Shown: piece after piece, positions 4,737 to 49,632 of the stretch
How positions within the stretch are numbered: position 1 is the first letter of the stretch
Layout: each line of letters opens with the position of its first letter
Source of the DNA: Lachnospiraceae bacterium
GTDB taxonomy: Bacteria > Bacillota > Clostridia > Lachnospirales > Lachnospiraceae
Direction of reading: 5' to 3'
Assembly (NCBI GenBank): GCA_017958185.1
Contig: JAGDDE010000029.1
Coordinates: forward strand, 29,972-93,971
DNA: 64,000 nt
The notes under the pieces: generated by a model
Told to the model about the DNA's origin: nothing
Seen by the model: only the letters and a program-made list of their open reading frames with translations
Database searches by the model: none
Translations under genes and position numbers: made by a program

Positions 4737-4765
4737 TTGCCTTCTCCGATAAAATCACTTATACT
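4737..4765 (+). promoter_or_regulatory. Sigma-A-like promoter upstream of the flavoprotein gene
   Basis: TTGCCT - 17 nt - TATACT read directly, about 30 nt upstream of the RBS GAAAGGAG. Confidence 0.5.
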
Positions 4766-4791
4766 AAAGAAAACAGCTGAAAGGAGCCTAA

Positions 4792-9933: not shown

Positions 9934-10004
9934 GCGGAGCGAACAAAAGAAGACCGGAGGAAGCGTTTCTTTCGCCTCCCCCGGTCTCTTCTTTTGCTGC
10001 CGTT

Positions 10005-10955: not shown

Positions 10956-11130
10956 GTTATTTCCTCCCGGCAGACTTTGTCTACTTGTTCCGACTGCCGG
11001 TTCAAGTATACCTTGTTCCGGCGAAAAAAGCAAGATGGCGTGCTGTAAGAGCACCCTGTTCTGCTCGATTATACTCAAACAGGAGATCCTTGAGAAAGGA
11101 CCTCCTGTTATATACGTTCCTGTGTGAATC

Positions 11131-11910: not shown

Positions 11911-12016
11911 TTTACGTTTTCCTTTCATTAATAGTGCCCAAAGAACAACTTGCACTTCTTTCAATTTCCTATTACCATCAAAAAAAGATACAGAAAACCA
12001 TGATATGTTGGTCTTA

Positions 12017-13791: not shown

Positions 13792-14189
13792 TTTGAACCC
13801 TCTTGTTTTAAAACACCACTTACAATCTACAGTTACTATCTTATCCTATCACGGAACCATTGAATCTGTCTCCCAATAGTTTCATGGTGGTGATTTATTG
13901 ATTGCATTCTTTCAAACCTTTGACTTCCGGTATCATGCTCTTTCTGCGACAGTAGGTACGTCTTGTTGCGTACACGAGTACGTGTAAACCCGATTGAACT
14001 ATTTGTCAAGTGCATTTCTATCGTATCTCGAATCAGGTATCTGTCATCATAATCTTTAACATACTTTCTCTGGCTTTGCTGCATCGCGATGATTCTCTGT
14101 CATTGGACAACAGAAGAACACGCCTGCATGTCCTGATACGGCGCCCGGCCTAGGTCTCTGCGCCTGTTTATACTTTGCTGAAAGACCTA

Positions 14190-33580: not shown

Positions 33581-34009
33581 TCACGGACGGCCTTCGTCCC
33601 GTACATCCATATGCCGGCTCATGCGTGCCAGTCCCTCCCGCGAAAAGCCCTCCCCGGCAAACGGCCGCAGGGCCAGCGCCATAAGTTTCATGGGATGATC
33701 ATCGGCCGCGATCCGGTTGGACGAGAGTTTTCCGCAGATCCGGCAGCGGTGGATGAGCGCCCATTCATTGTTTTTGCGCACCCATACGGCAATGGGATCC
33801 ATCACGCCGTGGCACTTCGAACGCCGGTCGCCCGGGGTCTCGTCCACGTGAAGGCTGCTCAGACAGTACGGACAGTGGTTGCGGTGGTCGGTGCCGGCGC
33901 CTTCCGGAACGACGCTGCGCCCGCAGACGCGGCAGGTGAAAGGATCCAGACAGGGATGCTTCTGAAAATACCCTTTGTCGAACTTTTTCTTTTTATTCTC
34001 ACGGCTCAT
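33581..34009 (-). CDS. RNHCP domain-containing zinc-ribbon protein
   Basis: Literal motif DHRNHCPYCLSSLH plus CxxC pairs (CRVCG, CRICG). GGAGGG RBS. Confidence 0.85.
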   Translation of the reverse strand: MSRENKKKKFDKGYFQKHPCLDPFTCRVCGRSVVPEGAGTDHRNHCPYCLSSLHVDETPGDRRSKCHGVMDPIAVWVRKNNEWALIHRCRICGKLSSNRIAADDHPMKLMALALRPFAGEGFSREGLARMSRHMDVRDEGRP

Positions 34010-34367
34010 CGTAGTAGCCCTCCGTGCTTCCGCTGCCGCCCATCAGCCGCGTCATTTCCCCGATCCTCTCCAGCGGGAAAGGCGGGTCAGCCAGCGGCCG
34101 GGCCGCCAGCTGCAGCAGTTTCAGGGGATTGTCCCGGGGCGCCCGGGGCGTGGCGGCCAGTTCGCCGCAAAGACTGCATTTCTGCAGGATCTCCCAGCTT
34201 CCGTCATCCTTCACCCACAGACTGATCGGCTGCAGGATGCCGCCACACTCCCACTCCTCCTGTGTCTCTTCATGCAGGCTGCAAAGACAGTTCGGGCAAT
34301 GGGCGTCTTCCTCTGCCATCTCAAAGCCGCACGAAAAGCAGCGGCGCGTTCCGGTTTCCAGGTCCAT
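33999..34367 (-). CDS. RNHCP-like zinc-ribbon paralogue (motif degenerated to DAHCPNC)
   Basis: Same Cys/His spacing (CFSCG..DAHCPNCLCSLH..CSLCG). Overlaps the downstream paralogue by 11 nt. Confidence 0.7.
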   Translation of the reverse strand: MDLETGTRRCFSCGFEMAEEDAHCPNCLCSLHEETQEEWECGGILQPISLWVKDDGSWEILQKCSLCGELAATPRAPRDNPLKLLQLAARPLADPPFPLERIGEMTRLMGGSGSTEGYYDEP

Positions 34368-34467
34368 GATCAGTTTCCTCTTTACTTTTTCCTTGAAAAA
34401 TGCTATGGTTAAGAGCAGGGTCGCATGGCCCGGCCGGAGGGAGATTTCCCCCTCGGAACATGATCCC

Positions 34468-34567
34468 GCTCTCGTAGTCTAATGGATAGAACGGTAGCCT
34501 CCTAAGGTAGACGCGGACCTTTCGCCTCGGGTCCAAAGGCGAGAGGTCAGGAGTTCGAATGAGCTCC
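34468..34567 (+). pseudogene. Disrupted tRNA-Arg(CCT)-derived element
   Basis: First 39 nt match the downstream tRNA at 38/39 positions. The 3' half is replaced by an 11-bp hairpin (34516-34548) and a TTCGAAT-containing segment. No cloverleaf can be drawn. Confidence 0.5.
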
Positions 34568-34627
34568 GTTGTAACACCAAAATATGACACCGATTTTTAG
34601 GGCATAATTGCCTTGAAAATATGAAAT

Positions 34628-34699
34628 GCTCCCGTAGTCTAATGGATAGAACGGTAGCCTCCTAAGCCACTAATCCGGGTCCGATTCCCGGCGGGAGCA
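34628..34699 (+). tRNA. tRNA-Arg (anticodon CCT) with non-canonical positions
   Basis: Hand-folded cloverleaf: acceptor GCTCCCG/CGGGAGC, anticodon loop CTCCTAA, T arm CCGGG-TCCGATT-CCCGG. Deviations are a C12-A23 mismatch, an A29-C41 mismatch and C instead of U at position 55. No encoded CCA. Confidence 0.75.
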
Positions 34700-34708
34700 T
34701 TTTCGAAA

Positions 34709-34752
34709 AGCCTGTAATACCAACGTTTTTGGCTATTACGGGCTCTTTTTTT
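34709..34752 (+). terminator. Intrinsic terminator after the tRNA
   Basis: AGCCTGTAATA...TATTACGGGCT stem followed by CTTTTTTT. Confidence 0.7.
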
Positions 34753-34878
34753 GCCCTCGTCCAGACCTTCAGTTTTCACACAACCGGCAGCCACGTCAGG
34801 CTCGCCGGTTTCTTCTATTCTTCTCCTTTTTTAGACGTCATATTCGGCATTTCGAATCGCACATTTGATGACCTCTTC

Positions 34879-34980
34879 CAGCTAACCGATTAGCAGAGGA
34901 ACCCCCCTTTCAGCTAACAGAAACGCCTCTCCAGCTAACAATAATTTTTCTCCTCATTTCGGAGCATCTTCTGCTAACAG
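34879..34980 (+). repeat. Left cluster of four C(A/T)GCTAAC(A)(G) motifs
   Basis: Motifs at 34879, 34911, 34932 and 34971. The last one sits at the tip of a roughly 37-nt hairpin (34959-34995). Confidence 0.8.
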
Positions 34981-35667
34981 AAGCGAGTGCTCCGATAATC
35001 GGCTGAACTCCCCTGAATCCCGCTAAAGAAAATTTTACAAATAGGCAGATTTTTGGAATATTTTGGCCATTTTCGAAGGCTAGTTATTGAGAGGACATTT
35101 CAATCCACGGACTTCAAACCGCCCTTCGGAATCCCTCTCACTACCTTGACAACTGAATAGCCATTCAGCAGATACGTTCCCTGCGCCGGGGTGAGGAGCC
35201 CCAAGCCAGGCTGACGGTGCGCAAAGACTCCGCTTCGGCGGACGAGCGATTGTTCCGAGCAGCAAAAACCGGATTGCTTCCGGCGGCGGCCATGACAGAC
35301 ACAGGGGATAATGATACTTCCGTCCAGTCACAGCCCCGAAAGGGATCGCGCAATGAGGGCGGTGGGCAGAGATCCTGCCCAAGGTGAGAGTCCTATGGAG
35401 CTGGCAGCAACCAGCCGTCTGATGATTTCCCGCAAGCGGGGTTCGAGGAAAAATAGCTTGCAGTAAATGAACTACAACGACAAAGGGGAAACCCTATCCT
35501 ATTTTCGGGGAGGATCCGGCAGCCAATGGCCTTCCACAAACAAGAAGACAAATGAAAAAGGGCCCGGGCCCGGATCCTTCTGTCAAGAATAACGTACCAA
35601 AAGATTCCCTGACTGTCAATACGAACAGAAGAAAGTCAGGGGATCCAGGAACGGGAAAGGAGTTTAT

Positions 35668-36099
35668 TTGACCAACAGCAAAGTAATCGCCGTCATTAAT
35701 CAGAAAGGCGGCGTTGGAAAAACAACCACAGTCATCAATCTCGGCGTGGCACTCAGCCGTGAAGGAAAGAAAGTCCTTCTCGTTGACGGTGACCCGCAAG
35801 GGAGCCTGAGCATAGGGCTCGGCAGACAGGACCCGGACAGCCTGGATGTGACCATCGCATCTTTATTGAAAGAAATTATTGAAGAAGGCACAGTATCGCC
35901 TGATGCGGGAATCCTTCATAATGAGGAAGGCGTCGATCTTCTTCCGGCCAACATCGAGCTGTCGGGTCTGGAGACCGGTCTTGTAAACGTTATGAGCCGG
36001 GAATTCGTGCTTCGGGAGCTCTTATGCCAGGTAAAAGATCGATACGACTATGTTCTGATTCTTCACTTCTCTGTTCGCTGGATCGGATTTTCGATGTAG
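35668..36099 (+). pseudogene. parA: parA (deviant Walker ATPase) truncated after about 130 codons
   Basis: TTG start with [22 protein letters not shown] Walker A. Homology ends at ..YDYVLI, where DCPPS is expected, and continues as unrelated [12 protein letters not shown] before the stop. Confidence 0.75.
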
Positions 36100-36291
36100 C
36101 TACAGTATATGTTATCAAGGGAAACAGCTATCGCGGCAAGCAGTGCGAGACGATCGCATTATCTGCCGGAGTGCCGTTATCTCTGGCGAAATCACCAGTC
36201 TAAGAAAGGAACGATTGTTGCATTGGCTGTTTCTTTTTGACTGAGTTTTGGCGAATTCCGCCCGACTCTTTTTGGCTGATTTCACCCGACT

Positions 36292-37734
36292 CTAACAACG
36301 GTACATGTCATCAAGAGAAATGAGCGTTACATAGCCCTTTCTGGAGGCTTCCTGAAGCCCTTCCGTAAAGCCGCCCTTAGAGAAGATATAATAAAAGCAC
36401 TGATCATTTGCGGAAGTAAAAGCGGATGCATATTCCCGGATCAGATTCAGTTCATCGATACCGATCTTTTCATTGCGATATTTACAGGAGCCTATGAGAT
36501 ATTGTCTCCCTGGGTCGCTCTGATGCGACTTTGGAGAGACAGCAACAATATCCAGTTGCGCTTCTTTCTTCAGAATCGGGTGAGAGCCCCACCATTCGCC
36601 GATATCACTGATCATAAAGGGCAATGTATCCATATGGTCGATCAGCCAGGAGCGGCACATGTACTCGAAGGTCTGGCCCATGTAATCGTGAAGAAAGCTT
36701 TCCACAACAGAGCTATACAGATACTCCATTCTTCCGGATGTGATAGCCATCATATTCCCCGGAACAAATCGGTACCAAAAGCGGAAAAACTGGTCGGTGA
36801 TCCGGTATATTATCTTCTTTTTGGATCGGTCAATAACAGGTTCTACCTTCTGAAGAATTCCCAGTTCACAGAGAACTTTCAGGTACTTGGCACAGGAAGC
36901 CGTATCAAGCTGCACTTTGGAAGCAATATCGCTCGGTCTGCTGGCGCCATCTGCAATTGCTGTGATGATTGAGTTGTATACAGCCGGCTCCCGCAGTTCC
37001 TGCCGAAGCAGATTGTCAGGTTCCTCAAACAGGTATGCCGAACGATCGAAAAAGTTCTCAAGAAGGGCGTCCCGAACACTGTCTCTGACCTGCAGCTTAT
37101 TAATGTAGTGTGGAATTCCGCTGGTAATTCCATAGATTAAAGCGTTATCTTCCGGTGACAGGTCCGGATGAAACCTGGCTGCATCAGAAAAGGATAACGG
37201 TTCAAGCTTCAGCTGAGCGGTGCGCCTCCCGAACAGCGGGCTTTCCTCACTGAGAACTTCTTTCTCCATAAAACTCATTGAAGATCCACATAGGATCAGG
37301 AAAAGGCCGGAATCCTTCCAGTCATGGTCCAACAGGTGTTGGAGGCGGGACGGTATCGACTTATCTGCATCACAGAGATAAGGAAATTCGTCCATCACAA
37401 AAATGACCCTGTCTGTTTTCACAATAGAAGTGATGGCGGAGAAGGCGTCGTCGAATGAGCGGTACACTGGGGAAGAAGCGGCTTCCGGATGAAGATACTG
37501 TGTAATGGATTTCGAAAGGGCTTCGAGGTTGTCAGCTGCATTTGCCTTTAATGCCGGAAAGAAAATGACCTTCTTGTCTTTGATAAATTCATTGATCAGG
37601 GCAGTCTTACCAACGCGTCTTCTTCCATAAATGACTATGCACTCGGTGCTTTCCTTGTGATAGTGGCGCTCCAATAAATGGAGTTCATGATCTCTGCATA
37701 AAAACATAGCAACCAAGTCCTTTCGGGGAAACAT
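36292..37734 (-). CDS. AAA+ ATP-binding protein (archaeal-ATPase/DUF234-type architecture, from memory)
   Basis: Walker A GRRRVGKTAL and Walker B VIFVMDEFPYL, with a C-terminal wHTH/nuclease-like region. ATG 37707 is an alternative start. Confidence 0.8.
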   Translation of the reverse strand: MFPRKDLVAMFLCRDHELHLLERHYHKESTECIVIYGRRRVGKTALINEFIKDKKVIFFPALKANAADNLEALSKSITQYLHPEAASSPVYRSFDDAFSAITSIVKTDRVIFVMDEFPYLCDADKSIPSRLQHLLDHDWKDSGLFLILCGSSMSFMEKEVLSEESPLFGRRTAQLKLEPLSFSDAARFHPDLSPEDNALIYGITSGIPHYINKLQVRDSVRDALLENFFDRSAYLFEEPDNLLRQELREPAVYNSIITAIADGASRPSDIASKVQLDTASCAKYLKVLCELGILQKVEPVIDRSKKKIIYRITDQFFRFWYRFVPGNMMAITSGRMEYLYSSVVESFLHDYMGQTFEYMCRSWLIDHMDTLPFMISDIGEWWGSHPILKKEAQLDIVAVSPKSHQSDPGRQYLIGSCKYRNEKIGIDELNLIREYASAFTSANDQCFYYIFSKGGFTEGLQEASRKGYVTLISLDDMYRC

Positions 37735-37920
37735 GCGTTAGGGTATCACACTTCAGTAAAACGTAATGCCCTTTTGGAGACATCATATACGAGATGATAT
37801 GATCTGTCAAGAGACTTATTCATGAAAAAGTGGAATGACATAGCCTTTTCGGAAAACCAAGTGGTCGTAACGAGCAGTCAAACGTCGAACTATATACGCA
37901 AGATAGCTTGCGTAAATTGA

Positions 37921-38105
37921 GAAAATATGGCTGCTGAAGAAACCGCAGACAGTGCTCGCCAGATTTAACGTTACATCCGTCTCACAGAGATCATTCCGGA
38001 GCTTCTTCAGATGGTGGATGACGTTAAGATGTCTATGCTGCCGGCAGTAGAGATTTCCTATCTCTCAAAGAAGGGACAGCAGATGCTGGCGGAGGCGATC
38101 GAGTA
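37921..38105 (+). pseudogene. parB: parB/Spo0J-like fragment with an in-frame stop
   Basis: Own translation ..ETADSARQI*RYIRLTEIIPELLQMVDDVKMSMLPAVEISYLSKKGQQMLAEAIE. TAA sits where conjugative-element ParB proteins have Q. Both the N- and C-terminal parts are missing. Confidence 0.6.
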
Positions 38106-38107
38106 AA

Positions 38108-38224
38108 ATACTATATCCTGTTGGATGAAATCCAGCATGTGAGAGACTTTGAAAAGGCATTATCCTCATTCCGCGCAACATTAAATGTATCTTTGTTTAT
38201 TACGGGGGCAATTCAACGCTATTA
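38108..38224 (+). pseudogene. Internal fragment of an AAA_14/DUF4143-type ATPase gene
   Basis: Own translation YYILLDEIQHVRDFEKALSSFRATLNVSLFITGAIQRY* (Walker B region only). Confidence 0.5.
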
Positions 38225-38422
38225 AAATCATCATGAGAGCAGTTGATCCCCGTGTTCATTCCTGACCACTGGGATCATTGCTTCTGGGGCTGCCATACAC
38301 ATCTTCGATGATCTTGAAGAAACCATAGAAAACGGGGGCAATAGTTTTGAAGAAATCGTATTTTGCTCTTGATTTATCCGTGAAGGAACTGTACAATCGA
38401 GCTTGCGAAGGAGGGTATTCTG

Positions 38423-39781
38423 ATGTACTTTAAGAGAAAAGCCTATGATCGCCTGTTGGAGTGGAAAAAACAACATGCCGGCAAATACAGCATTTTGCTA
38501 GACGGGGCAAGGCGTGTGGGAAAATCGACGATAGCCGAAGAGTTTGCGCGTCGGGAATACAGGTCCTATATCCTGATCGATTTTGCCAATGCGTCAGCAG
38601 CCGTTATGGCCTGCTTCAGCGATATCCAGGATCCTGATATGTTCTTTCTCCGCCTTCAGGCAGTAACTGGAGTGCAGTTATTCGAGAATGAGTCGGCGAT
38701 CATTTTTGATGAGATCCAGTTATTTCCACCCGCACGGCAGGCGATAAAGTATCTTGTTAAGGACGGCCGATATCACTACATAGAGACAGGCTCGTTGATC
38801 TCAATCAAGAAAAATGTGAAAGACATTTTGATTCCCTCCGAGGAAATGAAGCTTTCGGTTTATCCGATGGATTATGAAGAGTTTCTATGGGCATGCGGAA
38901 AGAACACTTACGGTATTATCAGGAGTTTATACGAAAAAGGCCGCAGCGTTGGACAACAGATCAATCGGACACTCATGCGGGATTTCAGGATCTATATGGC
39001 TGTCGGAGGCATGCCGCAGGCGGTGGAAGCCTATGTAAATGGAAAGTCCTTCGCTGAGATCGATACGGTAAAACGGTCGATTATTGCATTGTATGAAGAT
39101 GATTTTAAGAGAATTGATCCTTCGGGAAGGATATCTGCCATGTATCGAAGCGTTCCGGCTCAGCTTGCGCGAGGATTGAGGCGCTATCGGGTGAGCGGCG
39201 CAACAGGGAAACAGAAGACAAATCTGGATGATGAGCGTCTTTATGACCTGGCAGACTCAAAGACAGTTCTGCTGTCTTATAACAGCACAGATCCGCAGGT
39301 AATGCTATCTGCTTCCAAGGATTTTGACAGTTATAAGATGTATCTTGCAGATACCGGCCTCTTTGTTACGTTGCTGTTTATTGACAGACCGGAAACCGAG
39401 AACGATATTTATGCCAAGATGCTTTCTGACAAGCTTCCCGCCAATTTGGGCTATCTGTACGAGAATGCCATGGCGCAAATGATTGCAGCATCCGACAGGG
39501 AACTCTACTATCACACTTGGGAAAAAGAAAACAGTACGCATTATTATGAAATTGATTTCCTGCTCACCGATCATGCCAAGATAAAAGCGGTTGAAGTAAA
39601 ATCCTCCGGAGTCGGAAAACATGAATCATTGACCCGCTTTAAAGAAAAGTATTCAGGTTTTGTAAGAGACTGCTTTGTTTTTTCACAGAAAGACATACAA
39701 AAATCAGGCGGATTGATTTATCTTCCCATCTATATGGCACCGGCTTTTCTGGAAAAGCAGGAAAACTCTGGTACAGAATGA
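38423..39781 (+). CDS. AAA+ ATP-binding protein (AAA_14 + DUF4143-type architecture, from memory)
   Basis: Walker A GARRVGKST, Walker B IIFDEIQLFP, C-terminal ..YYHTWEKENSTHYYEIDFLL..VEVKS (PD-(D/E)xK-like). GAAGGAGGG RBS. Confidence 0.85.
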   Translation: MYFKRKAYDRLLEWKKQHAGKYSILLDGARRVGKSTIAEEFARREYRSYILIDFANASAAVMACFSDIQDPDMFFLRLQAVTGVQLFENESAIIFDEIQLFPPARQAIKYLVKDGRYHYIETGSLISIKKNVKDILIPSEEMKLSVYPMDYEEFLWACGKNTYGIIRSLYEKGRSVGQQINRTLMRDFRIYMAVGGMPQAVEAYVNGKSFAEIDTVKRSIIALYEDDFKRIDPSGRISAMYRSVPAQLARGLRRYRVSGATGKQKTNLDDERLYDLADSKTVLLSYNSTDPQVMLSASKDFDSYKMYLADTGLFVTLLFIDRPETENDIYAKMLSDKLPANLGYLYENAMAQMIAASDRELYYHTWEKENSTHYYEIDFLLTDHAKIKAVEVKSSGVGKHESLTRFKEKYSGFVRDCFVFSQKDIQKSGGLIYLPIYMAPAFLEKQENSGTE

Positions 39782-39947
39782 TTTGGAACACATGTCATTG
39801 AAAACATCCTGAATGAAAAACACAACCAGATCGAGAGGCTTCGAATCAAGTATAAGGAAACCTGGAAGTACATTCCGTCAATGAAGATGTGCGACCCCGG
39901 TAGCCAGTAATTCGAGCTGACTGCCGGGGCTTTTCTTTGTATTGCAG

Positions 39948-40029
39948 CTGCTAACACAGGGCTCTGTCAGAGCAGATTGGGATTCGCACATCTGCCCCCT
40001 GTTAGCAAATCTAACCGTTCTGCTAACAG
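39948..40029 (+). repeat. Right cluster of GCTAACAG-type motifs (two direct, one inverted)
   Basis: CTGCTAACACAG at 39948, CTGTTAGCA at 39999 (inverted), CTGCTAACAG at 40020. Confidence 0.8.
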
Positions 40030-41180: not shown

Positions 41181-42092
41181 TCAGAAGAACAGGTCTGTCA
41201 GCAGGCCCGTCAGGACCGAAAAAGCCATTACGAACACCAGATACAGGATAAAACGTCCCAGCCCCAGAACGATCTTCAGTGCGCCCAGATTGGTGATCTT
41301 GGTCGCCGGTCCCGTGATCATGAAGGCTGCCGCGCTGCCCAGGCTCATACCGCTCTGCAGCCACTCCTGCAGCAGCGGGATCGTTCCTCCGCCGCAGGCA
41401 TAGAGCGGGACGCCGATCGTAGCGGCCATCAGGATCCCCCACGCCCGGTCGCCTCCGAACAGACGAACCATCAGATCCTGGGGCACATAACGCTGGAACA
41501 GAGCCGACAGCAGGATGCCCGCCAGAAAATACAGTCCTGTGGCCTTCAGATTGCGCCAGAAATTTAACAGGTAGCGGATCAAAGGATCGGGGTGGGTGTC
41601 ATGGCTCTCCCTCTCCTCAAACCCGGTGAAATCAAAGAACTCTTTCCGGGAGCAGAACAGACGGACCAGCACGCCGGCTGTGATCCCGCACAGGAAACAG
41701 CTCACGATACGCACCGCAAGGGCCGCCGGCCCCAGAGCGGCACTGTAGATGATCAGCTGCGGATTCAGAAGGATCGAAGCCATCATAAAGGCGGCGATCC
41801 AGTCCTCCCTCATGCCGTTCCGGCGGAACGACGCCGCGATCGGAATGGTCCCGTACATGCAAAGCGGCGAGGCGATCCCCAGCAGGCACGCCGGAACGAT
41901 CCCGAAAACGCCCCATTTTGTCTCGTTCATCCCCGCCAGCAGCCGGTGGATGCGGTCTTTGGCAAATACGGAGATCAGCGATCCGATCGCCATGCCGATC
42001 ACCCAGTACCAGAAGATCTGCCGGAACTGGAGATCGAAATAGTACCACAGATAGACGAATTCCCGGTGCAGGACTTCCCAGAACTCAGCCAT
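41181..42092 (-). CDS. Permease (UPF0718/ArsP_1-type predicted permease, from memory)
   Basis: 303-aa polytopic ORF. Overlaps the upstream DUF362-like gene by 8 nt. Confidence 0.8.
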   Translation of the reverse strand: MAEFWEVLHREFVYLWYYFDLQFRQIFWYWVIGMAIGSLISVFAKDRIHRLLAGMNETKWGVFGIVPACLLGIASPLCMYGTIPIAASFRRNGMREDWIAAFMMASILLNPQLIIYSAALGPAALAVRIVSCFLCGITAGVLVRLFCSRKEFFDFTGFEERESHDTHPDPLIRYLLNFWRNLKATGLYFLAGILLSALFQRYVPQDLMVRLFGGDRAWGILMAATIGVPLYACGGGTIPLLQEWLQSGMSLGSAAAFMITGPATKITNLGALKIVLGLGRFILYLVFVMAFSVLTGLLTDLFF

Positions 42093-43125
42093 CGATCGTT
42101 ACCAGCCGGTAGGAGCGTTTCCCCAGACCGATCGCTTCCGCATGCTCCAGCGTATGCAGCCCGTGCTGATTTTCGATCCGCTGCATCAGAGTGCGGCTGC
42201 CCTGCGCCTGGCGGACAAGGTCGACACAGGCCTGATCCAGCGCCACCGGATCAAACGACGCAGCGATCCCGATGTCATGGATGTCCGGCTCGGCAGGCCT
42301 TCCGTTGCAGTCACAGTCGACGGACAGACGGTTCAGTACATTGATATAGACGATATGCTGCGCTCCCACATGGTCGCGGAAGCCCTTGACCATCTCCGCG
42401 AGAGCTTCGAGCCAGGCGTTCTGGTTACTGTAGTTGATGCTGCCGCTCGTTCTGGTGCCGGCCGTATGGACCAGGACCTTTCCGCTCGGCGAGGAGATCC
42501 CGATGCCCACGTTCTTGATCGCGCCTCCGAATCCGGCCATCGCATGTCCTTTGAAATGCGAGAGGATGACCCAGTCCTGATACCGTTCAGCATGACTGCC
42601 CACGATGATCCGGTTCAGCCGCGTGCCGCCCGTCATCGGCCAGGACACCTCTCCGTCTTCGTCCATAAGATCAAACTCCGCGATCGCCGTAAAGCCGTGA
42701 TCCGCCGCCACCTGCTTATGCAGGGCCGAACTGGCGCGCGATCCTCCGTAAGCGGTATTGCATTCCACGATCGTCCCCTTCAGCGACTGCACCAGGGTGC
42801 CGATAAGTTCCGGGCGGAGATAATTGCTGGCCGGAGGCTCTCCGGTGGATACTTTTACCGCCACACGGCCGTTTGGCTTCCAGCCCAGCGCTTCGTAGAT
42901 CTTCACCAGTCCCCGGGCGGAAATATCGGAAGTGAAGTAGACGACGGAGCCGTCCTCCGAAACAAAGGTTTCCACTGTCCCCGCTTCACTGCCGGCGGCG
43001 CTTTCCGGGTCAGGGCCGCTCCCGGACGGCAAACTGCTCTCCCGTCCGTCCGGGGCCGGTGAACAGGCACAAAAAGCAGCCATGACTGCGAGGCAGAGCA
43101 TCATGGCTGCGATCTTTTTCTTCAT
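42085..43125 (-). CDS. DUF362-like protein with lipoprotein signal peptide
   Basis: MKKKIAAMMLCLAVMAAFCAC lipobox. Core ..VAVKVSTGE..ECNTAYGG..LSHFKGHAMAGFGGAIKNVGIG.. matches my memory of DUF362. Confidence 0.75.
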   Translation of the reverse strand: MKKKIAAMMLCLAVMAAFCACSPAPDGRESSLPSGSGPDPESAAGSEAGTVETFVSEDGSVVYFTSDISARGLVKIYEALGWKPNGRVAVKVSTGEPPASNYLRPELIGTLVQSLKGTIVECNTAYGGSRASSALHKQVAADHGFTAIAEFDLMDEDGEVSWPMTGGTRLNRIIVGSHAERYQDWVILSHFKGHAMAGFGGAIKNVGIGISSPSGKVLVHTAGTRTSGSINYSNQNAWLEALAEMVKGFRDHVGAQHIVYINVLNRLSVDCDCNGRPAEPDIHDIGIAASFDPVALDQACVDLVRQAQGSRTLMQRIENQHGLHTLEHAEAIGLGKRSYRLVTIDG

Positions 43126-43350
43126 ACCTTTTCCCTCTCTGACTTTTCTCTTCAGGGGACTGGGTCCGTCCTCCGCAGAAACTCTCCGAAAGTGTCCGTC
43201 TTTCTTCTCGGAGATCCCGCTTTCCCTACTGTAACATCATACAGGAGACCGCGGGAAAGTCAAGGGGCAAGCTGTTTTTTGTCGTTTCTTTTCACGGCAC
43301 TGCTTTCCCGCTCCGGACAGTGTTCGGCCGGCGATCCCCTCCGGGGAGGC

Positions 43351-44154
43351 TCACTCCGCGGAAGGATCCTGCCGAAAGCGCGCAGGGAGCAGTCGGCCCG
43401 CTGCCCGGCAGATCGCGACGACGAGCGCCGCGAGCGGCAGGTTCGTCAGCAGCATGATCAGGGTGTAGACCGGGCGCAGTCCCCTCTCCGCCAGGAACGC
43501 CGCCAGATCCTCATAGAGCGGGACACCGGAGCCGCTGTAAAGCTGCATATAATCCGCCCCGAGAAGGTAATCCACCGGTGCCGCGATCAGTGCCAGAAGT
43601 ACGATCGGGACAAAGGAAAGACCGACGTTTTTCCACTCCGGCTGCGCATACCCGCTTGCCAGAAGGAGCACGCCCGTAAGCAGCATGGACGAGTGGAAAT
43701 ACAGGGAATAGAAAGCGCCGAACGTCCAGAACGGGTAGTAGTTCAGTCCGTTGCAGTAAATTACGCCGATGGCCCCGGAGAGCATGCCGACCGTGGTCAG
43801 AAAGGCCAGCGCGCAGTCTTTGGCCCGGCCCTTTCCCCAGGCCGCAAGCGGCAGCAGGTAGATCAGCAGCGAACAGGTGTAGAGCGGCAGCAGCCCGCCC
43901 GTGTTGAAACCCTGGCCGGTCGTGATGTCGTAATAACTCTCCCAGACGATCTTGACCACTTCCAGAACGGCCGTGAACACCGCCTGGATCTTCAGCCAGG
44001 CGGTGATCCTCTGTCTGTCCGCCTGTCTGAACAGGGGGACGGCCGCCAGGGAAAACAAAAACACGAGCACGATGAAGACCAGATGCGGCACGGAAAACAG
44101 GTCGCTCTGAAATCCGCTGATGTTGTGTTTGTAATCAAAAAAACGGTAGTGCAT
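43351..44154 (-). CDS. YwaF/TIGR02206-type integral membrane protein
   Basis: 267-aa polytopic ORF with GGAGGA RBS. The motif ..LLPLYTCSL.. is as remembered for this family. Confidence 0.75.
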   Translation of the reverse strand: MHYRFFDYKHNISGFQSDLFSVPHLVFIVLVFLFSLAAVPLFRQADRQRITAWLKIQAVFTAVLEVVKIVWESYYDITTGQGFNTGGLLPLYTCSLLIYLLPLAAWGKGRAKDCALAFLTTVGMLSGAIGVIYCNGLNYYPFWTFGAFYSLYFHSSMLLTGVLLLASGYAQPEWKNVGLSFVPIVLLALIAAPVDYLLGADYMQLYSGSGVPLYEDLAAFLAERGLRPVYTLIMLLTNLPLAALVVAICRAAGRLLPARFRQDPSAE

Positions 44155-44181
44155 GAAAATTATCCTCCGGTCCCGGGACTG

Positions 44182-44946
44182 TCACGGCGCCTTCAGCCCT
44201 GCCAGCTCGGCGATGGCCTCCGCTGTCCGCTCCCACTGCTCCTCCCGGGCGATGGTGGGCTCGCCGTCGCCCTTCTGGGCGCCGTAAGCGCCGAAGAAGG
44301 CGTGGCAGCCGCCCTCGATCACGATCTCCGTGAGATCTTCCGGGAGGTTCAGGCGGTACTTTTCATATTTTTTCCGGTTCAGGACGCCGTCCTGCGTTCC
44401 GAAGATGCTCAGGACCTTCAGCCCACTGCCGGAAAGATCCGCGGTCGAGTAGGCCGCCAGCAGGACCAGCGCCTGCCAGCCGTCCGTGTGTCCCGCCGCG
44501 TACGAAGCCGCCATTGCCCCGCCCAGCGAATGACCGCCGATCATCCAGAAGCCGACGAACGGATACTGCGCCGGGATGCCTTCCGCCGTTCCCGGCGCCA
44601 GAACGGCCAGATTGAGGGGCATCTTCGGCAGCACGCAGAGGATCCCCCGCTGCGCCAGCCGCAGCATCAGCGGCACATACGCCGTGAATTCCACCTTGCC
44701 GCCCGGATAAAAGACCAGCCCGGCCCGGGCATCCTCCGGGAGGAAGACCAGCCGTTTGGCGCTTTCCTCCACTCTGACGCCGGGAGTCCCGGCCTCCAGC
44801 AGTTCCCGCACCAGAGGCTCTGCCCGGGAATAATCCGCCGCGTAGATCGCTGTTGCGGCCGCTGCGACGGCGATCACGGCCAGCAGGATCCATAAAAGGA
44901 GGAGGCGCCGACGACGCGGCGCCCCGTTGTTCTGCGCTTCTTTCAT
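44182..44946 (-). CDS. Membrane-anchored alpha/beta hydrolase
   Basis: Trimmed to ATG 44946, since the longer ORF would overlap the upstream gene by about 150 nt. N-terminal TM helix and nucleophile elbow GGHSLGG. Confidence 0.8.
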   Translation of the reverse strand: MKEAQNNGAPRRRRLLLLWILLAVIAVAAAATAIYAADYSRAEPLVRELLEAGTPGVRVEESAKRLVFLPEDARAGLVFYPGGKVEFTAYVPLMLRLAQRGILCVLPKMPLNLAVLAPGTAEGIPAQYPFVGFWMIGGHSLGGAMAASYAAGHTDGWQALVLLAAYSTADLSGSGLKVLSIFGTQDGVLNRKKYEKYRLNLPEDLTEIVIEGGCHAFFGAYGAQKGDGEPTIAREEQWERTAEAIAELAGLKAP

Positions 44947-44950
44947 ACAG

Positions 44951-45604
44951 TCACCGGCACGCGAAGATATACTTTTCAAACAGTTCACGCGCCGTTTCCT
45001 CTCCGAAGAGTTTTTTGAACTGGTTGACCGCCGGTCCGCCGTTTCGGAACAGGCCGTCCACATACACGCGGGTCCGCGCTTTCTTTTCGGCCGGATCGGC
45101 ATCGTCTGCCCGCGCGGCCGCTTCGCGGTAAGCCTCCCAGTACTCCGCCGTGATCGTCTCTTTGAGCGTCTTCAGACTTTTATCCGAGGCGCCCAGCGTA
45201 AAATCGTAGCGGATACTGTCGTACCAGCGGGGCTCCGTCTTGAACGGCGGCAGATCCGCGTATCTCGCCTTCACGCGGCGGAAGCCCTCGGCCGAAGCCT
45301 CCGGCAGCGGCGCGATCATCGTATCGTAAAACTCCTCCAGTAGCGTGCAGCGGCCCGCGGCCCGGATAAAGTCGCCGCTGAACAGCGGCAGGTCCTTCGT
45401 TTCGGCTGTCAGGATGAAGCTCTCCATCTTCATGAGGCCCAGCATGGCCGACATCTCGATGACGCTCATCGAGCCAAAACCCCGGATCTCATACGAAGAG
45501 ATCACGAACTTCATGCCGTTCTTTTTCATGACGGCGAATCGTCCGGTATCGCGCGCAGCGACCGTATAGTCCGCGCGCAGCTTTTGAAGGATCAGGTCTT
45601 TCAT
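44951..45604 (-). CDS. Hypothetical soluble protein; possible ferredoxin-dependent bilin reductase-like fold (tentative)
   Basis: 217-aa ORF whose start overlaps the upstream stop by 4 nt. ..KDLPLFSGDFIRAAG.. and C-terminal ..FKKLFGEETARELFEKYIF resemble remembered PcyA motifs. The CDS call is firm; the function is not. Confidence 0.7.
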   Translation of the reverse strand: MKDLILQKLRADYTVAARDTGRFAVMKKNGMKFVISSYEIRGFGSMSVIEMSAMLGLMKMESFILTAETKDLPLFSGDFIRAAGRCTLLEEFYDTMIAPLPEASAEGFRRVKARYADLPPFKTEPRWYDSIRYDFTLGASDKSLKTLKETITAEYWEAYREAAARADDADPAEKKARTRVYVDGLFRNGGPAVNQFKKLFGEETARELFEKYIFACR

Positions 45605-46191
45605 TTCGCGGCGATCTCCTTTGCGGCGATCAGCAGGGCGGTCTGTCCCAGGATATTCACGCCCTCGCCGACCCAGTTCATATACGCCTGGCTGAAGTCT
45701 CTGGAAGAAAGGTAGCCCATCACCAGCATGAAGATGAAAGCGACCCAGAACAGCACAGCCGCCCGCGTCTTTTTCTGACGGGCCGCCCAGATGCCCAGAC
45801 CACCGCAGAAGCCGAGGCAGCCGAGCACCATAAGGACGACGAAGATCATCGTGCCGGAAAAGACCGCCGGGACCGCGGCCGCCCTCAGCGTCTCGCGGTC
45901 CTGCCGGAAATAGAGCAGCGCTGCCACCGCGATCCCGGCCAGCAGGAATCCGACGGACTGCATGGGGAAGAAACTCTGGTTGAGCCGCTCAAAATCGCAG
46001 ATGCCCGCGCCGTAGAGCAGCTTCCAGGTGGCTTTCATGAGACCGGCGGCAATGATCATGACCGTGCCGGCGGACAGCAGGGCAAAGGCGCCCTTGCTCA
46101 TCTTCTCGTACAGGGTCCGCTGGATCAGCACGGCCGAAACGGCAAACAGGATGACGGGGATATAATCCACCAGAGCCATGGGGACGGACAT
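45601..46191 (-). CDS. Integral membrane protein of unknown function
   Basis: 196-aa ORF with 5-6 hydrophobic segments. Its start lies 1 nt after the upstream stop. Confidence 0.7.
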   Translation of the reverse strand: MSVPMALVDYIPVILFAVSAVLIQRTLYEKMSKGAFALLSAGTVMIIAAGLMKATWKLLYGAGICDFERLNQSFFPMQSVGFLLAGIAVAALLYFRQDRETLRAAAVPAVFSGTMIFVVLMVLGCLGFCGGLGIWAARQKKTRAAVLFWVAFIFMLVMGYLSSRDFSQAYMNWVGEGVNILGQTALLIAAKEIAAK

Positions 46192-46192
46192 C

Positions 46193-46996
46193 TTATTTTC
46201 CTGCCTTTTCTTCCTTCACCAGATGGTACACCGGGATGAACGGGAACAGGATGGGCGTCTTTTCCACATAGGCGCGGTATTCCGGAAGATCCCCGTAGTT
46301 TTTGTTCTGGCGTTTTTCCAGACGCTGGGCACCGCTCACCATGATAAAGAAGATGGTGATGTAGCCCAGGACGGCAATGAGCCACTGCCAGCCCTGCAGG
46401 ATGCCCGTGCCCGAAACGAATACGCCGGTCCAGAAAGTGATCTCGCCGAAATAATTGGGGCAGCGGCTGAACTTGTACAGTCCTTCCATCGCCGGACGGC
46501 CGGGATCTTTCTTTTTGGCGTCGCTCTTCTGCTTGTCGGCCAGCGCCTCGAGGAAGATGCCGGCCGCCATGATCACCGCGCCGATCCAGGCCGTGATCTG
46601 GCCGCCGTCCGGAGCCGTCGCTTCGCGGTACCATACCGGCGAGGTCTGCACCACATACAGGACAGCCATGAAGATCCACATGACGAGCATCACCGGGAAC
46701 GGCACGGGCTTGCCGGTCTGCGCCTGCAGCGTTTTGCGGTAGGCCGCGCTCCTGATCTCGCGGATCAGCAGGAAGCCACCCAGACGGATGCCGTAGAGGA
46801 GCAGCAGCAGGCAGAGGACAGCCATGACGACGGTCAGGTCTCCGCGCACCAGGCCGATCACGGCGATGGTCACGCCGATGCCGGCCACAGCCAGTCCGTA
46901 ACCGACGGACATGAAGTAGACGAACTTATAGAAGCCGATCGCGCACAGAGCGGCGGAAACGATCAGCAGCACCCAGGTAAGGGGAGGAAATACCAT
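46193..46996 (-). CDS. DUF1295-type membrane protein (steroid 5-alpha-reductase / ICMT-like superfamily)
   Basis: Polytopic, with ..KFSRCPNYFGEITFWTGVF.. matching the remembered RHPNYxGE signature. Confidence 0.8.
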   Translation of the reverse strand: MVFPPLTWVLLIVSAALCAIGFYKFVYFMSVGYGLAVAGIGVTIAVIGLVRGDLTVVMAVLCLLLLLYGIRLGGFLLIREIRSAAYRKTLQAQTGKPVPFPVMLVMWIFMAVLYVVQTSPVWYREATAPDGGQITAWIGAVIMAAGIFLEALADKQKSDAKKKDPGRPAMEGLYKFSRCPNYFGEITFWTGVFVSGTGILQGWQWLIAVLGYITIFFIMVSGAQRLEKRQNKNYGDLPEYRAYVEKTPILFPFIPVYHLVKEEKAGK

Positions 46997-47012
46997 GACC
47001 GATCACCTCTCT

Positions 47013-47858
47013 TTATTTTTTATAGCAGTTCTTGATGTACTCGGCAAAACTGTGATCGCCTACGATCGTATCGCCCACCATCTCCTCGGTCAGCGTCCAC
47101 TTGGAGAACTTGATGATGGCTTCCTTGCCGTTCTTTTTCAGCTTGTTGACCCAGGCCAGCACGTCGAAGAGCCAGGTCGGCGCATAGCTGATATTCGGCT
47201 CTTTGCCGGCTGCCGCAAAGAACATCTTCGCCAGTTCTTCATAGGAGTAGGTCTCCTTGCCGCCCACGTCGTACATCTTGTTGTCGTCGCACATGTGCTC
47301 CACGATGAAATCGGCAAAGTCGGGCGTATCCACCACGTTCGCGTGCACGGGCTTCTTGCCCAGCAGCGTGACTTTTCCCTTCTCGACCATGGGCATGAAC
47401 ACCTTGGCGATGTCGTAGAAATAGCCGGTCGGTCGGAAAATGACCCACTTCATGCCGCTTTCCTTCAGATATGCCTCCAGTTTGGCCTTGGCGTCCAGCA
47501 TGGGCACGTCAGGGGCTTTGTCGGCCTTCAGCACAGACACGTACGCAAAATGCTTCACGCCTGCCGACACCGCTTCGTCGACCAGGTTTTTGTTGGCGCC
47601 CCAGTCGATATCATAGTTGGTCAGGGTGGCGCTGGTACGGGTCAGGCCCACCGTGGTGATCACGACGTCGGCACCGTCGCAGAGGCCTTTTAAGGCTTCG
47701 CGGTCGGTCATGTCGATCTTGACCGGCGTAAAGCCCGTGCAGCCCTCCAGCTCACGGATGACCATATCGCCGGCGATCACATTGTGTCCGGCGCGGACCA
47801 GACTGCGAAGGATGTCTTCTCCCAGATGCCCGAAGGCACCCGCCAGTACTACTTTCAT
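47013..47858 (-). CDS. NmrA-like / atypical SDR NAD(P)-binding protein
   Basis: MKVVLAGAFGHLGEDIL Rossmann motif; 281 aa. Confidence 0.85.
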   Translation of the reverse strand: MKVVLAGAFGHLGEDILRSLVRAGHNVIAGDMVIRELEGCTGFTPVKIDMTDREALKGLCDGADVVITTVGLTRTSATLTNYDIDWGANKNLVDEAVSAGVKHFAYVSVLKADKAPDVPMLDAKAKLEAYLKESGMKWVIFRPTGYFYDIAKVFMPMVEKGKVTLLGKKPVHANVVDTPDFADFIVEHMCDDNKMYDVGGKETYSYEELAKMFFAAAGKEPNISYAPTWLFDVLAWVNKLKKNGKEAIIKFSKWTLTEEMVGDTIVGDHSFAEYIKNCYKK

Positions 47859-47923
47859 GTCAGCTCCTTTCGAGGGAGGCCCTGCAGGCCTTCCTCTCTC
47901 CTTATGATAGTTTTTTGGTGCTC

Positions 47924-48859
47924 TTATTTATTTTTTTCCTTGGCTCTCTTGTCGTTGATGATATCCATGTGCTCGGCCGTGATCAGGGTCACGCCGTGCT
48001 CTTTCGCCCAGGATACGCAGCCCTTGAGTGCTACCGGCAGGAAAATGCGCGGCACGTTGACCAGCTTGGCGCAGGCCTCTTCCGTAAACTTGATGTCCGG
48101 GTCGATGCGGTCGGCCGCATACTGAACGCTGCTGACGGTCGTCGCACGGACAGGCAGCAGTTCGGGGATCGCACCCGAGAAGTTTCCGAAGCCCGGGAAG
48201 CGGGTGTACCAGAAATTCTTGGAATCACGGTAGCCGTAATCGACCGGCACTTTGGGGAAGTCCGCGGCCGTCACACCGTTGATGATGGCATTGTAGTATT
48301 TTTCTTTCATGAGGATCTTGTCGACCCGCAGGATAAAGGCCGCGCCGAACTTGGAAATGATCCCGTTGAAATCATGGTACGGCGGCTCATAGCCCTCCAG
48401 ATGGCCGGGCTCGTCGCGGTCTGCCCCGTCCAGATGGCGCATCCAGGTGCACTCGATGACCTGGAAGGCTTCCCGAACCACCAGCGGGCGCTTCTCCTCG
48501 CCGCCGGCCAGTCCCTCTTCCAGGGTGAACTTGCAGTTCTTCATCTTTTCCGCCGGGGTATCGCCCGGCCAGCCCAGACGCACAGCTTCCTTGAAATACT
48601 TCCGGTCGTCGGGGATGAAGTTGATGGCGCATTTGCCCGTCCGCAGGATATGCTGGGCCGTATTGGACGAGTTGCGGCAGTTGAGGAGCATGGCATAATA
48701 CTCTTTGCCGGCCACGTAATACGGCTGGACGAGGCTGTAAGGCCCCAGGCTCGTGCTGCCGTCCGGCGCCAGGGTGCTGATCAGCACTGTGGGCATGGGA
48801 AAGAACAGGGACGTCTGATAAAAGTTGTCCACGATCCGCAGATCTTTGAAGCTACTCAT
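47924..48859 (-). CDS. Flavin-reductase-like split-barrel protein with an extra C-terminal domain
   Basis: Trimmed to ATG 48859 (AAAGGAGGAAAT RBS). ..FPMPTVLISTLAPDGSTSLGPYS.. resembles the Flavin_Reduct N-terminus. About 150 further residues are of unknown fold. Confidence 0.7.
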   Translation of the reverse strand: MSSFKDLRIVDNFYQTSLFFPMPTVLISTLAPDGSTSLGPYSLVQPYYVAGKEYYAMLLNCRNSSNTAQHILRTGKCAINFIPDDRKYFKEAVRLGWPGDTPAEKMKNCKFTLEEGLAGGEEKRPLVVREAFQVIECTWMRHLDGADRDEPGHLEGYEPPYHDFNGIISKFGAAFILRVDKILMKEKYYNAIINGVTAADFPKVPVDYGYRDSKNFWYTRFPGFGNFSGAIPELLPVRATTVSSVQYAADRIDPDIKFTEEACAKLVNVPRIFLPVALKGCVSWAKEHGVTLITAEHMDIINDKRAKEKNK

Positions 48860-48903
48860 ATTTCCTCCTTTGACGGCAGGCCCGCCTGCCGGTTGATTCG
48901 TTT

Positions 48904-49431
48904 TCACGAAAGCAGTTTTTCCACCGCTTCCTTCAGATCTTCATAGCGGCTGTGCCCGTCGGAGCCGAAGCGAAGCAGCAGTTCGGCCAAAAACGGCGCG
49001 AGCCAGGGCTCAGTCTGGGTATTTTCCGCCTGAAACGCCTGGGTCAGATACCCGGCAAACTGTTTCACCAGTACGTCATGGTACCGTACCCGCATGGACT
49101 CGGCCGTTTTGTGATCCTCATACTGGGCCCAGGACAGGGAATAGCGCTCTGTAAAGGTACGGACCATTTCAAATAACGCTGCCAGCTTGCTGCGGACGTC
49201 CATCCCCTCCGAGCGCGCCTCAAACCCGCGGGACAGTTCCTGCCAGTCTTCGAGCATGACTCCCGCCGCCAGATACTCTTTGGAGGGAAAATAATTGTAG
49301 ACCGTCCCCAGCGCGATGCCCAGCGCCCCGGCCACACGCCGCAGCGTCATGCCGCGGTATCCGTCCGCCAGTAATTCCTTTCGGGCTTCCGCCAGCGCAT
49401 TTTCCCGTATGTTTTCAATGATTTTCGGCAT
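48904..49431 (-). CDS. TetR/AcrR-family transcriptional regulator
   Basis: Trimmed to ATG 49431 (AGAGGAAC RBS). HTH MTLRRVAGALGIALGTVYNYFPSKEYL. Confidence 0.85.
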   Translation of the reverse strand: MPKIIENIRENALAEARKELLADGYRGMTLRRVAGALGIALGTVYNYFPSKEYLAAGVMLEDWQELSRGFEARSEGMDVRSKLAALFEMVRTFTERYSLSWAQYEDHKTAESMRVRYHDVLVKQFAGYLTQAFQAENTQTEPWLAPFLAELLLRFGSDGHSRYEDLKEAVEKLLS

Positions 49432-49599
49432 AAGCGTTCCTCTTTTCGTTCTTCCTGTTCGCCGGAAAAGGCGTTCTGTCCCGGCAGCCGTCTGTATCAT
49501 CTTTTCTAAATGAACGCGTTCATATAAACAGTATACGCGGCCGTTAACTTTTTGTCAACTGTTTTCGGTGAAAAAGCGGCTCCTGTAAGAAAATGCCAA

Positions 49600-49632
49600 G
49601 AGGGCGGCACTTCGTAAGGAAGTACCGCCCTC
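49600..49632 (-). terminator. GC-clamped hairpin / terminator after the 171-aa gene
   Basis: GAGGGCGGCACTTC-GTAA-GGAAGTACCGCCCTC. On the minus strand it is followed by TTGGCATTTTCTT. Confidence 0.6.

Follow-up and report, generated by a model that had tools for sequence, protein, structure and literature searches.

A bilin-reductase-like protein encoded in a predicted TetR-controlled operon of herbivore-gut bacteria

The window considered here is a stretch of 64,000 nucleotides from a Lachnospiraceae bacterium (assembly GCA_017958185.1, contig JAGDDE010000029.1, positions 29,972 to 93,971), and its positions 43351-49431 hold eight co-directional genes, all on the minus strand, one of which encodes a soluble 217-aa protein resembling the ferredoxin-dependent bilin reductases (FDBRs). 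From the 5′ end, the genes encode a TetR-family repressor of 175 aa (48904-49431; PF00440, 38 bits; gene call on near-identical contigs); g2, a 311-aa probable FMN split-barrel protein of the flavin-reductase/flavoredoxin type with a C-terminal helical extension (47924-48859; PF01613, sub-threshold at 22.4 bits); an NmrA-like NAD(P)H-binding oxidoreductase of 281 aa (47013-47858; PF05368, 80.9 bits; PF13460, 70.8 bits); a DUF1295 protein of 267 aa, a putative membrane ene-reductase (46193-46996; PF06966, 111.6 bits; PF02544, 23.7 bits); TM196, a polytopic membrane protein of 196 aa to which Pfam and NCBIfam assign no family (45601-46191); the FDBR-like protein (44951-45604), with no family at default thresholds; a carboxylesterase-type alpha/beta hydrolase of 254 aa (44182-44946; PF12695, Abhydrolase_5, 165.7 bits; GHSLG); and a TMEM164/YwaF-type integral membrane protein of 267 aa (43351-44154; PF14808, 61.4 bits).

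A preceding sequence-only reading had described the same eight minus-strand open reading frames (ORFs), which are indeed present at these positions, with two starts in need of correction: that of g2 was revised to 48859 (MSSFKDL; 311 aa) on the basis of homologues and of gene calls on near-identical contigs, and that of the hydrolase to 44946 (254 aa), 4 nt past the stop of the 217-aa gene, on the basis of the latter. As a consequence of the first revision, the TetR-g2 gap is +44 nt and not -4, while the others are as first described: 65 nt for g2-NmrA, 16 for NmrA-DUF1295, 1 for DUF1295-TM196, -4 for TM196-FDBR-like, and 27 for hydrolase-TMEM164. Regarding the family labels, those proposed earlier agree with the Pfam and NCBIfam scans, with sub-threshold scores for g2 and TIGR02206, and the motifs then quoted, PLFSGD, the C-terminal FG.E....F, FSRCPNYFGEITFW and GGHSLGG, are all found in the translations.

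The 217-aa protein had been compared with bilin reductases; the resemblance is real, since Foldseek, profile searches and hhalign all identify it as a remote homologue with the FDBR fold. The structural comparison with FDBRs proposed at that stage was run with Foldseek and profile alignment, and similarity to PcyA, PebA, PebB and HY2 was detected. The AlphaFold (AF2) model built from the family alignment has a pLDDT of 97.1, and its best 34 PDB matches are FDBRs without exception (PebA, HY2, PcyA, PebB, PebS), with E down to 1.2e-8, TM-scores of 0.57-0.78 and 12-16% identity; HemF trails, with E of 0.02 or worse and a TM-score of ~0.55, and no RCCR structure occurs among the 50 best PDB matches. 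Profile-profile alignment with hhalign, against a target made of three cyanophage pcyA gene products plus a GtPEBB fragment, gave 93.6% probability and E 2.1e-7 over residues 16-216, and the family profile matched the Guillardia PEBB structure 6qwq over residues 63-215 (E 0.0065). In a permissive Pfam scan, Fe_bilin_red (PF05996) aligned over nearly the full model with 15.5 bits and E 0.014, and it was matched by 16 of 32 diverse homologues at E<=0.1 (best E 4.7e-8). A direct PDB sequence search with the 217-aa protein returned no match; thus, the relationship is visible only to profile and fold methods.

As for the catalytic residues, the Asp of the LFxxD motif had been noticed earlier, together with the lack of an obvious catalytic His: the Asp proves invariant, and the protein contains no histidine at all. 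This residue, D78 of the PLFxxD strand, does not vary across 32 sequences and corresponds to the catalytic Asp of the known enzymes (PcyA D105, PebS D105, GtPEBB D99); two independent alignments pair it with the Asp of GCD or LGLD. E61, mostly conserved, occupies the position of PcyA His88, and I49/E50 lie at that of Glu76; the distal Asp position falls on G189-G190, followed by P191, of the invariant NGGPA motif, so that G190 replaces the distal Asp. In addition, a Met-rich surface of the sheet is conserved, with M51, M54, M58 and M60 invariant or nearly so. From its sequence and modelled structure, the 217-aa protein is a genuine relative of the FDBRs, though a very distant one and a deep outlier; it falls outside PF05996, because its score is sub-threshold and the second proton donor is missing.

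The family is well populated and uncharacterised: a word-indexed search found 208 matching clusters at 90% identity, every named one being a "hypothetical protein", and an exhaustive profile search found 683 representatives at 50% identity with E<=0.001, 498 of them at E<=1e-10. With one genome per species, GTDB yielded 66 loci, distributed among Oscillospiraceae, Lachnospiraceae, Erysipelotrichaceae, other Clostridia and a few Coriobacteriia. All hosts come from anaerobic lineages, and at least 47 of the 66 loci are in metagenome-assembled genomes (MAGs) labelled as rumen, ruminant gastrointestinal tract or horse faeces; the strain of the window itself recurs in ruminant and bovine gut metagenomes. 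The distribution shows that the FDBR-like family is largely restricted to herbivore guts.

The partners of the FDBR-like gene were counted within 6 kb of it at 67 loci, namely the 66 from GTDB plus the window. DUF1295 is found in 24 of them and NmrA in 23, followed by TM196 (17), g2 (13), the hydrolase (11) and TetR (9); TMEM164 occurs in the window only. At some loci the direct neighbour is NmrA alone or DUF1295 alone, and every time that one or both accompany the FDBR-like gene, the genes are co-directional and tightly spaced. These partnerships recur in at least four deep clades of the FDBR-like family, as defined by a neighbour-joining tree, and in several bacterial families; at the level of gene order, this repeated adjacency shows that the FDBR-like gene is linked to NmrA and DUF1295. 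Regarding the NmrA protein, two allele classes occupy the same operon slot: the one of the window is ~80-90% identical to those of L002, L004, L014 and L028 (loci are designated by L numbers), 72-74% to those of L038-L063, and only 58-60% to those of L001 and L006-L016. This pattern does not track the identity of the FDBR-like proteins and suggests module shuffling.

The stand-alone copies of the gene lie among neighbours such as UvrA-like, LuxS, RmuC and M19 genes, and a Pfam scan found no enriched partner family, none occurring in more than 2 of 53 neighbours. Pfam scans of the immediate neighbours in 39 partner-less loci, plus 20 selected neighbours, detected no heme oxygenase, phytochrome, cyanobacteriochrome, globin, bilin-binding or other recurrent tetrapyrrole gene beside the FDBR-like gene. 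This result bears on the most conventional explanation, a canonical FDBR converting biliverdin to the phycobilin or phytochromobilin of a bilin-binding photoreceptor or biliprotein. The fold and the central Asp agree with it, but it is scarcely credible in view of the scanned neighbourhoods, which hold no heme oxygenase, phytochrome, cyanobacteriochrome or globin gene, of the sub-threshold Pfam score, of the loss of His and distal Asp, and of the hosts, dark-living gut organisms of anaerobic lineages.

Four loci encode, directly beside the FDBR-like gene, a fusion of a flavodoxin-like domain with a 2x[4Fe-4S] ferredoxin domain (L038 8666-9418, L049 7184-7951, L056 8653-9426 and L059 691-1482); they belong to Oscillospiraceae, Lachnospiraceae and Coriobacteriia/Actinobacteria, and the fusion is a candidate electron donor. 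Its presence points to electron transfer and speaks against a second explanation, according to which the FDBR-like protein is not an enzyme and instead binds or sequesters a toxic pigment or lipophile in the cytoplasm, handing it over to the core reductases or shielding the cell during their action. Such a role would suit the loss of the second proton donor and of all histidines, the conserved Met-rich sheet surface and the frequently solitary gene, and heme-responsive detoxification operons do exist in Clostridia; even so, the catalytic position is held without exception by D78, and that of PcyA His88 mostly by E61, and a purely binding function appears improbable.

The eight genes had been read as a single array; synteny in relatives contradicts this, since they are not co-inherited and separate into a core, an FDBR-like/hydrolase add-on and TMEM164. 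Homologues of g2 and TM196 gave access to four long-contig contexts outside FDBR-like clusters, and all four display TetR-g2-NmrA-DUF1295-TM196, or the same set minus TetR; the FDBR-like gene and the hydrolase are absent from every one of these four, and therefore both form a 3′ accessory module on the core operon. TetR-g2-NmrA-DUF1295-TM196 is thus an independent, much more widespread operon of gut Clostridia and their relatives, and TetR-g2 also forms a pair of its own, preceded by the same operator. As for TMEM164, its gene is absent from all 66 GTDB loci and occurs otherwise only in the near-identical strains L073-L076; its linkage is specific to the lineage of the window.

Some loci carry further genes around the accessory module. 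In several of them a 221-aa polytopic protein of no family, not present in the window, is encoded between the FDBR-like gene and the hydrolase (L001 5558-6223, L003 2196-2861, L010 5348-6013, L012 8724-9389, and also L077-L081); its identification as a TM196 paralogue was rejected (BLASTP E 8.2). In L077-L081, which represent one rumen lineage, a 684-aa protein with an eCIS_core domain is encoded directly downstream of the cluster (12842-14896).

Regarding its control, the TetR gene is preceded on the minus strand by a sigma-A-type promoter (49530-49558) with 11 of 12 consensus matches: TTGACA at 49558-49553, a 17-nt spacer, and TATACT at 49535-49530. It is the best site in a 9-kb promoter scan, and its architecture recurs at related loci. 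Six nt downstream of the -10 box, the perfect 14-bp palindrome ATGAACGCGTTCAT (49510-49523) is the probable TetR operator, and TGAACNNGTTCA occurs once in the window against an expectation of 0.04. The motif has 29 matches in 89 loci, 27 of which closely follow a -10-like box in front of TetR, or in front of g2 at loci without TetR. The other two, in L033 (2893-2904) and L036 (2353-2364), both Christensenella-labelled MAGs, have the same promoter-operator layout, with the operator TGAACACGTTCA and a matching -10 box 37 nt upstream of a solitary FDBR-like gene. Therefore, the gene is tied to the same regulon independently of adjacency, which implies that in these two genomes it may be controlled in trans by a TetR protein encoded elsewhere. 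Upstream of the other stand-alone copies no further site was found, even with the search relaxed to one mismatch. The TetR operon is accordingly predicted to be autoregulated through a palindromic operator adjoining its own promoter.

The 5′ boundary of the operon is probably marked by a hairpin on the minus strand (49600-49632), with a 14-bp stem, GAGGGCGGTACTTC-CTTAC-GAAGTGCCGCCCTC, and a U-rich tail, which as read from the sequence would act as terminator of the upstream 194-aa gene; at the other end, no intrinsic terminator was found 3′ of the TMEM164 gene (z-score 0.79). GC-rich palindromic intergenic hairpins of this kind occur at operon boundaries both in the window (49600-49632) and in L016 (5566-5620). 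Metagenome and metatranscriptome contigs with differing flanks share ~30 nt at them, and assemblies break or branch there, which suggests that they are repeated palindromic elements, similar to REP (repetitive extragenic palindromic) sequences. Taken together, promoter, operator and gene order show that the region is, as predicted from sequence, one promoter-and-operator-controlled transcription unit with a modular history.

As for expression, the homologous operon of L016 is covered by contigs from RNA libraries of sheep and other gut samples, and single contigs cross the DUF1295-TM196, TM196-FDBR-like and FDBR-like-hydrolase junctions; they are consistent with co-transcription, although, being assembled contigs, they may include DNA carry-over. 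The same search with the sequence of the window returned solely low-depth runs of unknown type. These data bear on whether the linkage has any meaning, since the FDBR-like gene and the hydrolase might simply have landed by an unrelated TetR operon. The strictly local linkage of TMEM164 and the solitary state of the FDBR-like gene in about half of the loci would agree with such an accident; against it stand the adjacency of NmrA and/or DUF1295, repeated across several bacterial families and no fewer than four deep clades, the TetR operator that also precedes the gene in L033 and L036, and the RNA-derived contigs that cross gene junctions. Chance linkage is very unlikely overall, and for the FDBR-like gene, NmrA and DUF1295 it is already largely refuted.

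Among the partners, g2 scores 22.4 bits for PF01613 (Flavin_Reduct), whose cut-off is 27, and Foldseek matches its N-terminal ~185 aa, and only these, to NbaA, 1eje, flavoredoxins and flavin reductases with E ~1e-9 (model pLDDT 68). An extra domain of roughly 150 aa had been attributed to it: an extension does follow the split barrel, but it comprises ~125 residues, mostly helical, in a lower-confidence structure. g2 has at least 7907 homologues; identity is 75-91% among the 120 listed, which derive from MAGs of Lachnospiraceae, Oscillospiraceae and Solobacterium, whereas in the same loci the FDBR-like proteins are just 55-70% identical. It is thus unusually conserved and, even apart from the operon, seems an important protein that is as yet uncharacterised. 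Its identification as a HugZ-type heme oxygenase or an F420 biliverdin reductase was rejected, as the structures closest to it are those of ordinary flavin reductases and flavoredoxins. Its identification as FLR, a flavone ene-reductase of the gut with a similar length and a wide distribution, was discarded as well, since FLR is WrbA-like according to its paper and did not appear among the PDB matches.

The NmrA-like protein has GAFGHLG near its N-terminus, corresponding to the Rossmann GxxGxxG, and passes the PF05368 threshold; its PDB relatives include the quinone oxidoreductase YtfG/QOR2, NDUFA9 and the ketoreductase SimC7. The DUF1295 protein is a member of the steroid-reductase/ICMT/PEMT superfamily: it exceeds the PF06966 cut-off by far (111.6 vs 20.4 bits), is marginal for Steroid_dh (PF02544; 23.7 vs 22.6), and reaches E 0.09 only against the SRD5A homologue 7c83 in the PDB. 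Its putative role as a membrane ene-reductase has a parallel in the fungal UsgR, which has a conserved domain similar to DUF1295 and is a proven ene-reductase acting on a chromenone C=C bond (PMC8597850). In L073 the gene call divides the DUF1295 gene into ORFs of 105 and 165 aa (4539-5353), and it is intact in other strains; the split is either a frameshift or an assembly error. TM196, strongly conserved and with 2633 homologues, has no His, and its alignment displays the conserved charged motifs CDFERLN and MGYLSSRDF. The hydrolase is very similar to the fold-5 carboxylesterase 9eh6 in the PDB (E 5.9e-40), with GHSLG as nucleophile elbow; its N-terminus consists of RRRR followed by a hydrophobic helix, and for this reason it is probably an anchored enzyme with its catalytic domain facing outward. 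Finally, the last protein scores 61.4 bits for TMEM164 (PF14808; cut-off 25) and 47.9 for TIGR02206 (cut-off 75).

The nature of these partners supports the main rival explanation, in which the whole operon, FDBR-fold protein included, acts on a lipophile of plant or host origin other than a tetrapyrrole, the fold having been recruited as a new ene-reductase or isomerase. Candidate substrates are isoprenoid alcohols and aldehydes (e.g. phytol, reduced to dihydrophytol), enones of the sterol or bile-acid type, polyunsaturated fatty acids, quinones and chromenones. As reductases, the conserved partners are of a kind typical for lipids or enones: the C=C bond of a chromenone is reduced by a protein whose domain resembles DUF1295, and the relatives of NmrA include the quinone oxidoreductase YtfG. 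Moreover, the esterase is a generic carboxylesterase, the core operon is found without the FDBR-like gene, half of the usual FDBR catalytic residues are lost, and some stand-alone loci adjoin lipid genes (PAP2, acyl-ACP thioesterase, acyltransferase). On the other hand, these lipid-gene neighbours are not recurrent, nothing discriminates among the candidate substrates, and all the characterised members of the FDBR/RCCR/CPO fold bind a tetrapyrrole; an entirely non-tetrapyrrole pathway is possible but doubtful.

The preferred reading, to which a probability of about 0.4 is given, is that the operon encodes a reductive pathway for a lipophilic plant-derived compound and that the substrate of the FDBR-like protein is most likely a dietary chlorophyll catabolite. 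Such a compound would release TetR from the ATGAACGCGTTCAT operator, and the esterase, probably outward-facing, would free the substrate from an ester. In the cytoplasm, the FDBR-like protein would bind the conjugated, most probably tetrapyrrole-type molecule between its beta-sheet and C-terminal helices, and would reduce a C=C bond through proton-coupled electron transfer, with protons from D78, and perhaps E61 too, and electrons from ferredoxin, flavodoxin or g2. NmrA and DUF1295 would use NAD(P)H for hydride reductions, either of this compound or of another released along with it.

The substrate candidates are a phyllobilin, pheophorbide or pheophytin. The characterised relatives of the fold, FDBRs, RCCR and CPO, all act on tetrapyrroles (PMC10151467), and chlorophyll derivatives abound in the rumen, which precedes the point where bile enters; both points favour a chlorophyll catabolite. 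The same choice is preferred over bile pigments or self-made biliverdin because the hosts belong to anaerobic lineages, mostly from the rumen, and no heme oxygenase gene was found in the scanned neighbourhoods. In particular, host bile pigments were judged unlikely, the carriers being mostly rumen organisms and thus located upstream of the bile duct. Phyllobilins would not need any oxygen-dependent ring opening by the bacterium.

Several observations weigh against this interpretation. The core operon occurs without the FDBR-like gene, so that its partners are not tetrapyrrole-specific, and the FDBR-like gene is solitary amid unrelated housekeeping genes in ~33 of 65 loci; the scanned neighbourhoods revealed none of the tetrapyrrole genes mentioned above. 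In addition, the protein of the window shares just 12-16% identity with the solved FDBRs, its PF05996 score is half of the curated cut-off (15.5 vs 31 bits), and the second proton donor found in each of the characterised FDBR classes, His88/Glu76 in the PcyA type or the distal Asp in the PebA, PebB, PebS and HY2 type, is missing from it, since it has no His and no distal Asp. Lastly, the RNA evidence consists of the assembled L016 contigs, with their possible DNA carry-over.

Compared with the known FDBRs (PcyA, PebA, PebB, PebS and HY2; PF05996), the FDBR-like family has the same alpha/beta/alpha sandwich over its full length (TM-score 0.7-0.78), profile-detectable homology, the Asp of the PLFxxD strand, the C-terminal FG.E....F helix and, occasionally, an adjoining ferredoxin-type gene. 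It differs in that the protein is shorter (217 aa), has no His, and has Gly for the distal catalytic Asp; moreover, the family is found in non-photosynthetic gut bacteria, without a heme oxygenase or bilin-binding partner nearby, and the gene is embedded in a TetR operon with NmrA and DUF1295. With RCCR and HemF it has in common a fold superfamily with tetrapyrrole substrates, chlorophyll-derived and linear in the case of RCCR, but its structure is closer to that of the FDBRs proper.

Heterotrophic, non-photosynthetic bacteria are already known to have FDBR relatives, the pre-PcyA proteins (Rockwell et al. 2023, PMC10151467; PMC13446030). Their three lineages are all globin-associated, with pre-2 and pre-3 mainly in Myxococcales, and the pre-1 and pre-3 proteins studied are encoded with heme oxygenase and reduce biliverdin (PMC10151467; PMC13446030); by contrast, heme oxygenase and globin partners are absent around the gut FDBR-like genes scanned. 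FDBRs have been regarded as enzymes of photosynthetic organisms and phages, lately extended to mostly aerobic heterotrophs with heme oxygenase, and it has been argued that all the known structural relatives depend on oxygen-derived substrates; earlier "archae-FDBR" lineages were queried (PMC10151467; PMC13446030). A term search of the same two papers found no mention of Firmicutes or Clostridia.

The membrane and Rossmann-fold components recall other systems. Known pairs are the gut-bacterial steroid 5-alpha-reductase with 3-beta-hydroxysteroid dehydrogenase and the eukaryotic SRD5A3 with DHRSX; in both, a polytopic protein of the steroid-reductase superfamily and a Rossmann-fold dehydrogenase/reductase work on a lipophilic enone or allylic alcohol. 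The operon differs from them in having DUF1295 and not PF02544 proper (23.7 bits) and an NmrA-type dehydrogenase, with the FMN split-barrel protein, TM196 and the FDBR-like protein in addition. Searches of the literature on DUF1295 function, on this gene combination and on bilin reductases of gut Firmicutes returned no description of the family or of the operon, in line with the sequence-only reading, which had matched the array to no operon it knew.

Outside the operon, the window holds a downstream unit (41181-43263) with a DUF362 protein and an ArsP-type permease, whose genes overlap by 8 nt and have their own promoter-like site (43263-43236); it is a separate unit, not part of the eight-gene set. 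Furthermore, two islands of low GC (~10000-14000 and 34000-40000) have values of 0.43-0.53 against ~0.61 elsewhere, and the second, which encodes AAA_14/DUF4143 and ATPase_2/DUF234 ATPases, may be mobile or defence-related DNA.

In conclusion, the 217-aa protein represents a new, deep lineage of the FDBR superfamily with a new genomic context, and the core TetR operon is itself uncharacterised. Its family comes from fermenting gut bacteria in anaerobic lineages and differs in catalytic residues as well as in partner genes; it thereby broadens the superfamily and is relevant to how the latter arose. The analysis also flags two more uncharacterised units, namely the very widespread TetR-controlled reductase operon of gut Clostridia and its extremely conserved FMN protein. 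If the substrate were indeed a chlorophyll catabolite, rumen chlorophyll metabolism and hepatogenous photosensitisation would become testable at the gene level. A bolder and unlikely extension is that anaerobic gut bacteria have here their first native lineage of the FDBR superfamily, a reductase driven by ferredoxin or flavodoxin that would act on breakdown pigments of dietary chlorophyll, alongside an esterase exported from the cell and reductases using NAD(P)H; the pigments would be phyllobilins already ring-opened by the plant, or pheophorbide-type chlorins. If it held, it would offer a counter-example to the view that all FDBR/RCCR/CPO relatives depend on oxygen-dependent chemistry in the same organism, and would give a genetic handle on the long-known, gene-less microbial chlorophyll conversion in the guts of herbivores, including the route to the photosensitiser phylloerythrin.

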